NCBI RefSeq assembly: GCF_988242995.1
Contig: NZ_OZ547043.1
Strand: one strand, 5' to 3'
DNA length: 64,000 nt
Program-made: the position numbers and the translations under genes
The notes under the pieces: generated by a model
Told to the model about the DNA's origin: nothing
Database searches by the model: none
Seen by the model: only the letters and a program-made list of their open reading frames with translations
Shown here: piece after piece, positions 62,258 through 64,000 of the stretch
Position numbering within the stretch: the first letter of the stretch is position 1
Layout: every line of letters starts with the position of its first letter

Positions 62258-64000
62258 ATGAACAGAACCAGTCGCTATTATTTTCACCGCTCAGTACTTT
62301 CCTTATTGATAGCTGCCATGATATATGCCCCTCCCGGGATGACGGCTTTCACTTCTAATGTTATTGGTGTTGTAAATGATGAGACTGTAGACGGCAGCCA
62401 AAGAGTAGATGAACGAGGTACAACAAATAATGCTCATATCATCAATCACGGCAATCAGGAGGTATATGGCGGGATTTCTAATGGAAGTGTTATTGATACT
62501 GGTGGACATCAAGAGGTATCTGGTCATGGCTCTTATCAGGGGCAGGCTAATAATACAGTCATTAACGGTGGCAGCCAGACAATTAGTGAGGGAGGAATTT
62601 CTACAGGGACGATAATTAACGATAAAGGAACAATGTCAGTTTTAACGAATGCTAAAGCTGATGCGACCCGAATAGATAACGGCGGGGCCATGGATGTTGC
62701 CGGGAACGCGACTAATACCATAATTAATGGCGGTACACAGAATATTTATAATCATGGTATTGCTACGGGAACTAATATCAACAGTGGCACGCAAAATATC
62801 AAGAGCGGCGGGAAAGCTGACACAACAAATATCTCTTCCGGGAGCAAGCAGGTTGTTGAGAAAGGAGGTACGGCAACTGGCAGCAATATTCGCGCCGGAG
62901 GCACGCTGATTGTCGATACCGGCGGTATCGCACATGGGGTTTACCTGGACACGGGGAGCGCTTTAGTTGCCAATACGGGCGCGGGGACTGATATTGATGG
63001 ATACCAGAGGTCATCTCACTTCACTATTACCGGAGGCAGGGCTGAGCATGTTGTGCTGGAAAATACCGGCCAACTGACGGTCGTAGCTCAAACCTCGGCG
63101 GTAGATACCATCGTTGATGCTGGCGGTAAGCTGATTGTCCACGAGGAGGCCGTAGCATATACCACCAGACTTAACAATGGCGGCATACTCGATGTGCGGG
63201 AGAAAGGCAGCGCAACGGGGATACAGCAGAGTAGTCAGGGCGCGTTGGTTGCAACCACCAGGGCGACGCGGGTCACAGGGACACGCGCTGATGGCGTCGC
63301 GTTCAGCATCGAGCAGGGTGCGGCGAACAATATCCTGCTGACAAATGGCGGCGTGTTAACCGTGGAGTCAGACACCACTTCCGCCAAAACACAGGTCAAT
63401 GCGGGCGGTCGGGAGATCGTCAAAACAAAAGCCACTGCGACAGGCACGACGCTCACTGGCGGTGAACAAATCGTCGAGGGTGTGGCAAATGAGACAACAA
63501 TTAACGACGGCGGAATACAAACAGTTTCAGCTAACGGAGAGGCAATAAAAACAACGATCAATGAAGGCGGAACGCTGACAGTCAACGATAATGGCAAAGC
63601 GACAGATATCGTCCAGAACAGCGGTGCCGCTCTCCAGACGAGCACGGCTAACGGTATTGAAATCAGCGGTACGCACCAGTACGGCACCTTTTCCATTGCC
63701 AGCAATTTAGCGACCAATATGTTGCTGGAAAATGGCGGTAATTTATTGGTATTAGCAGGTACCGAAGCCCGTGACTCCACGGTTGACAAGGGTGGTGCAA
63801 TGCAAAACCTGGGTCAGGACTCCGCCACAAAGGTTAACTCTGGTGGGCAATATACCCTTGGGCGGTCAAAAGATGAGTTTCAGGCTCTGGCCCGGGCAGA
63901 AGATCTACAGGTCTCTGGTGGGACGGCAATCGTCTACGCAGGTACGTTGGCGAATGCATCGGTCAGTGGCGCGACAGGAAGCCTGTCGTTAATGACGCCA
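62258..64000 (+). CDS. AIDA-I/Ag43-type autotransporter adhesin, N-terminal passenger portion (3' end beyond window); occupies the position of K-12 ycgI
   Basis: my own translation from ATG 62258 (SD agagga) found no in-frame stop to position 64000; about 19-aa repeats such as T.IN.GG.Q.V..GG.A..T typical of beta-helix passenger domains; absent from ORF track only because no stop codon falls inside the window. Confidence 0.75.
   Translation, partial: MNRTSRYYFHRSVLSLLIAAMIYAPPGMTAFTSNVIGVVNDETVDGSQRVDERGTTNNAHIINHGNQEVYGGISNGSVIDTGGHQEVSGHGSYQGQANNTVINGGSQTISEGGISTGTIINDKGTMSVLTNAKADATRIDNGGAMDVAGNATNTIINGGTQNIYNHGIATGTNINSGTQNIKSGGKADTTNISSGSKQVVEKGGTATGSNIRAGGTLIVDTGGIAHGVYLDTGSALVANTGAGTDIDGYQRSSHFTITGGRAEHVVLENTGQLTVVAQTSAVDTIVDAGGKLIVHEEAVAYTTRLNNGGILDVREKGSATGIQQSSQGALVATTRATRVTGTRADGVAFSIEQGAANNILLTNGGVLTVESDTTSAKTQVNAGGREIVKTKATATGTTLTGGEQIVEGVANETTINDGGIQTVSANGEAIKTTINEGGTLTVNDNGKATDIVQNSGAALQTSTANGIEISGTHQYGTFSIASNLATNMLLENGGNLLVLAGTEARDSTVDKGGAMQNLGQDSATKVNSGGQYTLGRSKDEFQALARAEDLQVSGGTAIVYAGTLANASVSGATGSLSLMTP

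Follow-up and report, generated by a model that had tools for sequence, protein, structure and literature searches.

The open frame at the end of a 64,000-nucleotide window very probably belongs to a type Va autotransporter gene, a YpjA/EhaD paralogue at the ycgI locus

The stretch of DNA analyzed here, referred to as the window, comprises 64,000 nucleotides of contig NZ_OZ547043.1 (NCBI RefSeq assembly GCF_988242995.1) and ends within an open reading frame (ORF) of the plus strand that starts at position 62258. Our analyses indicate that positions 62258-64000 very probably represent the 5' part of a gene for a classical monomeric autotransporter (type Va), a YpjA/EhaD paralogue located at the ymgJ-minE locus, where Escherichia coli K-12 carries the pseudogene ycgI. 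This assignment draws on the frame itself, on the complete gene of three assemblies whose first 581 residues match those of the window at 100% identity (E. coli MEI003, whose locus is denoted L001, and two others, L008 and L009), and on structure prediction.

An earlier note, made from the letters of this DNA, had claimed at least 580 codons from the ATG at 62258. Translation of the plus strand, together with a script, yielded 581 codons without any stop up to base 64000; over the same interval, the other two plus-strand frames contain 27 and 44 stops, and the minus-strand frames 15, 19 and 37. The nearest in-frame stop upstream of this ATG is at 62123-62125, and the in-frame start candidates are GTG 62129, ATG 62162, ATG 62249 and ATG 62258. 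The last one is the RefSeq start on the identical sequence of MEI003 and is preceded by a GAGG motif (62245-62248) at a distance of 9 nt. A start at ATG 62249 is less likely, since this codon overlaps the Shine-Dalgarno sequence. The frame has no entry in the ORF list covering 55000-64000, as had been pointed out, because that list leaves out ORFs still open where the source ends. The features of this region are the following:

62258..64000 (+): codons 1-581 of the ycgI-locus autotransporter gene, with no stop and 100% identical to the MEI003, L008 and L009 genes.
62258..62347 (+): residues 1-30 (MNRTSRYYFHRSVLSLLIAAMIYAPPGMTA followed by F), as read from the sequence a probable Sec signal peptide with a putative cleavage site.
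62351..64000 (+): passenger with AIDA / strand-loop-strand repeats, each about 19 aa long, for which a right-handed beta-helix is predicted (Pfam, TIGR04415, autocorrelation, AlphaFold2 and Foldseek).
62244..62249 (+): Shine-Dalgarno-like AGAGGA, with its GAGG core 9 nt 5' of ATG 62258, as read from the sequence, in a region whose conservation extends to the sequence 5' of ypjA in K-12-type and O157 genomes.
61874..62257 (+): leader of 385 nt, duplicated with the gene upstream of ypjA/ehaD (blastn, 86.7% for L001 9175-9917 against the ypjA locus).
62229..64000 (+): window-visible part of the segment missing from K-12 (blastn of the K-12 ycgI region against L001).

The 581-residue product carries the degenerate repeats of about 19 aa that the earlier note had described. 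A BLOSUM62 autocorrelation over residues 30-581 reached its maximum at lag 19 (z = 7.1 relative to shuffled sequence); additional maxima occurred at lags 18, 37/38, 56 and 75. Pfam AIDA (PF16168) matched the product in 6 stretches (E = 3.4e-91), and the strand-loop-strand repeats of NCBIfam TIGR04415 in 7 (E = 5.5e-45). Residues 1-30, as read from the sequence, comprise a basic N-region and a hydrophobic core, with Ala at position -1.

Further evidence came from close relatives. A megablast search with positions 61700-64000 against 5,426 complete E. coli genomes gave a 100% match to MEI003. This genome differs from the window at 8 of the 11,301 overlapping bases, without insertions or deletions, and none of the differences lies after window position 59532, so that the last 4.4 kb are identical. 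The MEI003 gene (L001:9559-12849) encodes a protein of 1096 aa in which Pfam detected six AIDA matches, a Pertactin domain (PF03212) at 641-759 (E = 1.3e-46) and an Autotransporter beta-domain (PF03797) at 835-1074 (E = 1.3e-45), the latter also matched by TIGR01414 (E = 4.1e-96). As an independent route, we retrieved contigs encoding exactly the 887-aa YcgH protein of the window; in three cases the contig extends beyond the next gene, whose product has 1128, 1128 and 1100 aa. Two of these contigs, L008 and L009, agree with the window at 100% over its 581 aa. The L001, L008 and L009 genes are intact (1096, 1128 and 1128 aa, respectively), and the Asn-Pro dipeptide count of a linker is the sole difference among their proteins. 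Residues following position 581 number 515-547 in these three assemblies, the stop codon is found about 1.55-1.65 kb past the window end, and 62258-64000 corresponds to the 5' 53% of the gene. Beyond residue 581, a pertactin-type (autochaperone-like) junction comes first; it is followed by a low-complexity linker of (Asn-Pro)n/Pro-Asp-Thr composition, then by a helix and finally by a 12-strand barrel. The barrel whose presence downstream the earlier note had asked to be checked is therefore found in MEI003, L008 and L009, and would be expected in the window's own strain.

The linker is encoded by an in-frame CCAAAT microsatellite (L001 11845-11897), outside the window and about 2.3 kb into the gene, which yields an (Asn-Pro)n stretch between passenger and barrel. 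Its copies range from 7.5 in MEI003 up to about 26 in WCHEC96200, and differences in copy number among near-identical strains result in proteins of 1096, 1100, 1112, 1128 and 1134 aa. In draft assemblies, contig breaks are frequent inside the gene. The exact MEI003 protein had no entry in a collection of 15 billion proteins; the homologue search returned mainly fragments from draft assemblies, named 'AIDA repeat-containing protein' or 'YpjA/EhaD, partial', and no specific trivial name for the ycgI-locus protein.

We also modeled the MEI003 1096-aa protein with AlphaFold2 from an alignment of 41 sequences, obtaining a mean predicted local distance difference test (pLDDT) value of 79. Residues 1-29 had pLDDT < 50 and structured strands began at residue 38. 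The model shows an all-beta passenger of short regular strands (38-759), a disordered segment (765-790), a helix of about 30 residues (796-826) and 12 long strands (833-1095). In Foldseek comparisons with the PDB, the best match of the passenger was Ag43 (E = 3e-21), with TibA and pertactin also matching, and the C-terminus aligned with the BrkA beta-domain with a template-modeling (TM) score of 0.91 and a root-mean-square deviation of 2.4-2.7 Å. A sequence search of the PDB matched Ag43, TibA, an AidA-I family adhesin, Vag8, BrkA and pertactin. As to the parts of a type Va protein, the beta-helical passenger lies within the window (six AIDA stretches, AlphaFold2 strands and the Foldseek match to Ag43), the junction or autochaperone lies outside it, as seen in the Pertactin domain of MEI003, and the helix and 12-stranded barrel lie 3' of its end in MEI003, L008 and L009. 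Collectively, the family, PDB and structural matches bear out the proposal of an AIDA-type beta-helical autotransporter.

The same matches raise the question of whether the protein is a member of the AIDA-I, Ag43/Cah or TibA family that acts by heptosylated head-to-tail self-association, which we consider quite unlikely. Its repeats are of the TIGR04415 'O-heptosyltransferase target' type, Ag43, TibA and the AidA-I family adhesin are its best PDB matches, and a review groups YpjA with biofilm-forming adhesins beside the self-associating autotransporter families, its mechanism and structure being unknown (PMC9289746). However, the scores obtained with the NCBIfam equivalog models of Ag43 (NF033177, 206.5/185.9 bits) and AIDA-I (NF033176, 177.9/158.4 bits) were about one sixth of the cut-off of 1200 set for each, and the passenger is therefore of AIDA type but is not that of Ag43/Cah or AIDA-I itself. 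The protein is just 30-37% identical to TibA-like proteins and others of the AIDA type, and no glycosyltransferase gene adjoins the adhesin gene, its neighbors being ymgJ and minE. Of the earlier description of the repeats as AIDA-I/Ag43/TibA-type, the repeat type stands; the nearest relative is YpjA/EhaD and not any of those three.

In other genomes, RefSeq/PGAP labels the ycgI-locus gene 'ypjA: adhesin-like autotransporter YpjA/EhaD'. True ypjA (K-12-type; b2647 in K-12) and ehaD (O157:H7) are located elsewhere, adjoining ypjCB and prophage-type genes. Comparison of L001 with the K-12-type ypjA locus by blastn gave three collinear aligned blocks:

L001 9175-9917 against ypjA locus 1615-2358: 86.7% identity.
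L001 9909-10485 against ypjA locus 3001-3577: 87.0% identity.
L001 10471-12859 against ypjA locus 4160-6590: 94.6% identity.

The duplicated unit extends from 385 nt 5' of the start through 10 nt past the stop. The copy at the ycgI locus is without blocks of 642 and 582 nt, which encode 214 and 194 aa of the YpjA passenger (residues about 121-333 and 527-720). At the protein level, identity to YpjA/EhaD is 81% over 992 aligned residues including gaps, and about 95% over the last ~790.

On the strength of its RefSeq symbol and of this C-terminal identity, shared with both K-12 YpjA and O157 EhaD, the gene could be taken for ypjA/ehaD itself. This reading is refuted by synteny, and we give it almost no credence. 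The adhesin gene lies beside ymgJ and minE in the core chromosome and not at the ypjCB site on a CP4-57-type island, a different chromosomal place, and it is therefore a paralogue of ypjA and not its orthologue. Genomes usually have both places (median of 2 per genome), and MEI003 has 2. The length and architecture also differ, with 1096-1134 aa compared with 1526-1528 aa and the 642- and 582-nt blocks absent. From sequence comparison, the ycgI-locus gene is identified as a shorter YpjA/EhaD paralogue at a separate locus. A full-coverage match near 1.21 Mb in O157:H7, considered as a candidate ycgI locus, was rejected on synteny, since it corresponds to the true ehaD locus.

The leader duplicated with the gene (61874-62257) holds ymgJ (61928-62113) and an annotated ORF of 39 codons (62074-62193), and an Rfam search found no RNA family in it. 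In a four-way alignment, its last ~300 nt are about 95% identical between the two loci, a higher conservation than that of the initial 360 nt of coding sequence. Judging from this alignment, the leader could be a shared regulatory region. An extended proposal, which we regard as unlikely, is that the ycgI-locus gene and the island-borne ypjA/ehaD form a two-copy adhesin system with gene conversion, common control by the leader and tuning of linker length. Here, gene conversion may keep the 3' 2.4 kb alike, as suggested by the 94.6% identity of this part compared with 87% in the 5' parts; the 385-nt leader, with ymgJ and the 39-codon ORF, may be a joint regulatory module; and the (CCAAAT)n repeat may tune the reach of the passenger from the cell. 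If this were true, strains with both copies would show two passenger lengths under one control.

Returning to the paralogue at the ycgI locus, its position relative to K-12 was established by gene order and by alignment. In MEI003, the adhesin gene is flanked by ymgJ and minE, with pdeG-ymgF-ycgH-ymgD-ymgG-ymgI upstream. The order is unchanged in K-12 MG1655, where the 344-nt pseudogene ycgI (b4521) occupies the adhesin position. K-12 aligns by blastn up to L001 9529 and resumes at 12505, so that 2,975 bp (L001 9530-12504) are absent. The left edge of this deletion corresponds to window position 62229, 29 nt 5' of the ATG, and the deletion takes the ribosome-binding site, the start codon and codons 1-982. 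What remains as ycgI in K-12 is the last 345 nt of the gene (nt 2947-3291), which together with the downstream spacer is 93.6% identical to L001 and carries an additional frameshift. Among the remnant-type records listed in a spread sample, 17 of 17 have their right-hand junction at gene nt 2947; the identical junction in all sampled remnants suggests a single ancient deletion behind the remnant-type loci. Both the ymgJ-minE flanks and the remnant alignment agree with the location at the K-12 ycgI pseudogene given in the earlier note, and its suggestion of an adhesin retained here and lost from K-12 is supported, with intactness past 64000 extrapolated from the relatives.

We determined the prevalence of the locus with an 8-kb query from the 3' end of ycgH to minC, which has unique flanks, taking coverage of at least 80% as a full-length locus. 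This query was chosen because the ypjA locus covers 81-100% of other queries, which inflates counts. A full-length ycgI locus was found in 423 of the 5,426 complete E. coli genomes (7.8%); coverage in the remaining genomes was at most 63%, as expected from the K-12-type deletion or from other losses. Five full-length loci were inspected, and the gene was intact in MEI003 (1096 aa), S1-JOR-02-A (1126 aa, with the annotated start 7 nt further downstream), WCHEC96200 (1134 aa) and 300444 (1112 aa). O157:H7 genomes other than PV15-279 have the 3' part only at the ycgI locus and an intact island-borne ehaD.

Several observations weigh against our assignment or against an intact gene. About 92% of the complete genomes are without the full-length locus, the copy of K_EC180, the fifth locus inspected, is flagged as frameshifted, and that of O157:H7 PV15-279 is split by the insertion sequence IS1203 (L006 1105-5810). 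No complete genome is exactly equal to the window (the best match to 44000-64000 is 99.3%), and for the continuation of the gene past base 64000 in its own strain we rely on relatives. The putative signal-peptide cleavage site has a non-canonical Met at -3. A promoter and terminator scan of 61600-62400 gave nothing above chance, its promoter-like matches not outnumbering those of shuffled sequence, and no experiment on the ycgI-locus paralogue was found in the searchable literature. Some of these points would fit a gene that is broken beyond base 64000 in the window's strain by a frameshift, an insertion sequence or a deletion, and that is hence a pseudogene. The locus is indeed prone to decay, with K-12-type deletions dominating and the two disrupted copies just mentioned. 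However, intact genes of 1096 or 1128 aa are present in each of the three assemblies with 100% identity over the 581 aa, and 4 of the 5 sampled full-length loci are intact. We consequently judge a broken gene very unlikely, and retain the reading of the window end as the first half of a type Va autotransporter gene.

Proteins of the type Va class follow a route of Sec export, barrel insertion assisted by the beta-barrel assembly machinery (BAM), C-to-N extrusion of the passenger and beta-helix folding. By this route, the precursor encoded at the ycgI locus would be exported by Sec and its barrel placed in the outer membrane by BAM; the passenger would then be threaded out C-terminus first, folding to a beta-helix retained on the cell surface, and the expressed protein would be predicted to promote surface adhesion and biofilm formation. 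By homology to YpjA, the protein would most likely act at the cell surface in adhesion and biofilm formation, after secretion by the type Va pathway. YpjA has been associated with adhesion and biofilm in a paper that cites Roux et al., 2005 (PMC3796261), and YpjA/EhaD raises biofilm formation in O157:H7 (PMC12547504). In the searchable literature, the name ycgI was encountered solely for a pseudogene, in K-12 and in UTI89.

The region upstream of the gene (61700-62150) is AT-rich, with a GC content of 0.30-0.36, and the gene may be silenced given this composition and the reportedly cryptic state of ypjA in K-12. There is nearly an even chance, in our view, that the gene is intact and transcriptionally silent (cryptic) under ordinary growth, with no phenotype unless de-repressed. 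In addition to the AT-rich upstream region, Roux et al. (2005) reportedly saw K-12 ypjA, ycgV and yfaL act as adhesins solely upon artificial expression, and the repeated loss of the gene across E. coli fits weak selection. Against this stands the fact that the frame is kept intact among close relatives, in which the only changes are in-frame and affect linker length.

These results imply nothing new in biological terms. The protein is an adhesin of a well-understood kind, and hundreds of public genomes already carry an annotation of the ycgI-locus gene. The consequences are rather for typing and annotation. When adhesins are typed by homology, two loci may be merged under the name "ypjA", as these share 87-95% DNA identity and the same RefSeq name; the merged loci differ in passenger length and in distribution, a full-length ycgI-locus copy being present in about 8% of complete genomes. 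In addition, ORF lists limited to terminated frames miss genes that cross the window edge, and the flag raised earlier on this frame was correct.

Other features were observed elsewhere in the window. Rfam STnc490 matches were obtained at 21834-21957 and 50437-50560 (+), with 144.6 bits each, and each of them runs into the start of a 169-codon ORF (21916-22425 and 50519-51028). The second site, between icd and ycgX, is annotated as IS200C tnpA in related genomes. The two STnc490/ORF pairs together with this annotation therefore indicate two IS200 copies in the window; for the second IS200 junction, the best complete-genome match was 98.9%. According to the annotation of related genomes, the segment at about 48256-52704 comprises icd (48256-49506), IS200 within about 1 kb, and then ycgX, iraM and bluR. 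The e14 prophage, which interrupts the icd region in K-12, appears to be absent here.

A second autotransporter gene, ycgH, is located at window positions 58250-60913 (+) and encodes an intact protein of 887 aa that comprises an AC_1 autochaperone, a Pertactin domain and also a barrel. In K-12, ycgH carries a pseudogene annotation, and translating it directly gives 3 stops. From the ycgH and ycgI comparisons, both autotransporters flanking ymgD-ymgJ are broken in K-12 and intact in this strain, for the adhesin as far as its relatives indicate. Like the adhesin, YcgH is an autotransporter of type Va, intact here but reduced to a pseudogene in K-12. However, it has another passenger, without AIDA repeats and with AC_1, and is not a close relative.

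Among known systems, YpjA/EhaD is the closest one, with which the ycgI-locus protein shares the N-terminus, the repeat type, the pertactin domain, a Pro-rich linker, the barrel and the RefSeq product name. The linkers themselves differ, being a variable (Asn-Pro)n stretch in the ycgI-locus protein and Pro-Asp/Lys repeats in YpjA. With Ag43, TibA and AIDA-I the protein has in common the 19-aa beta-helix repeats, a predicted beta-helical passenger and the type Va barrel. In contrast, similarity to these three is at the family level only, and the adhesin gene is without an adjacent heptosyltransferase gene.

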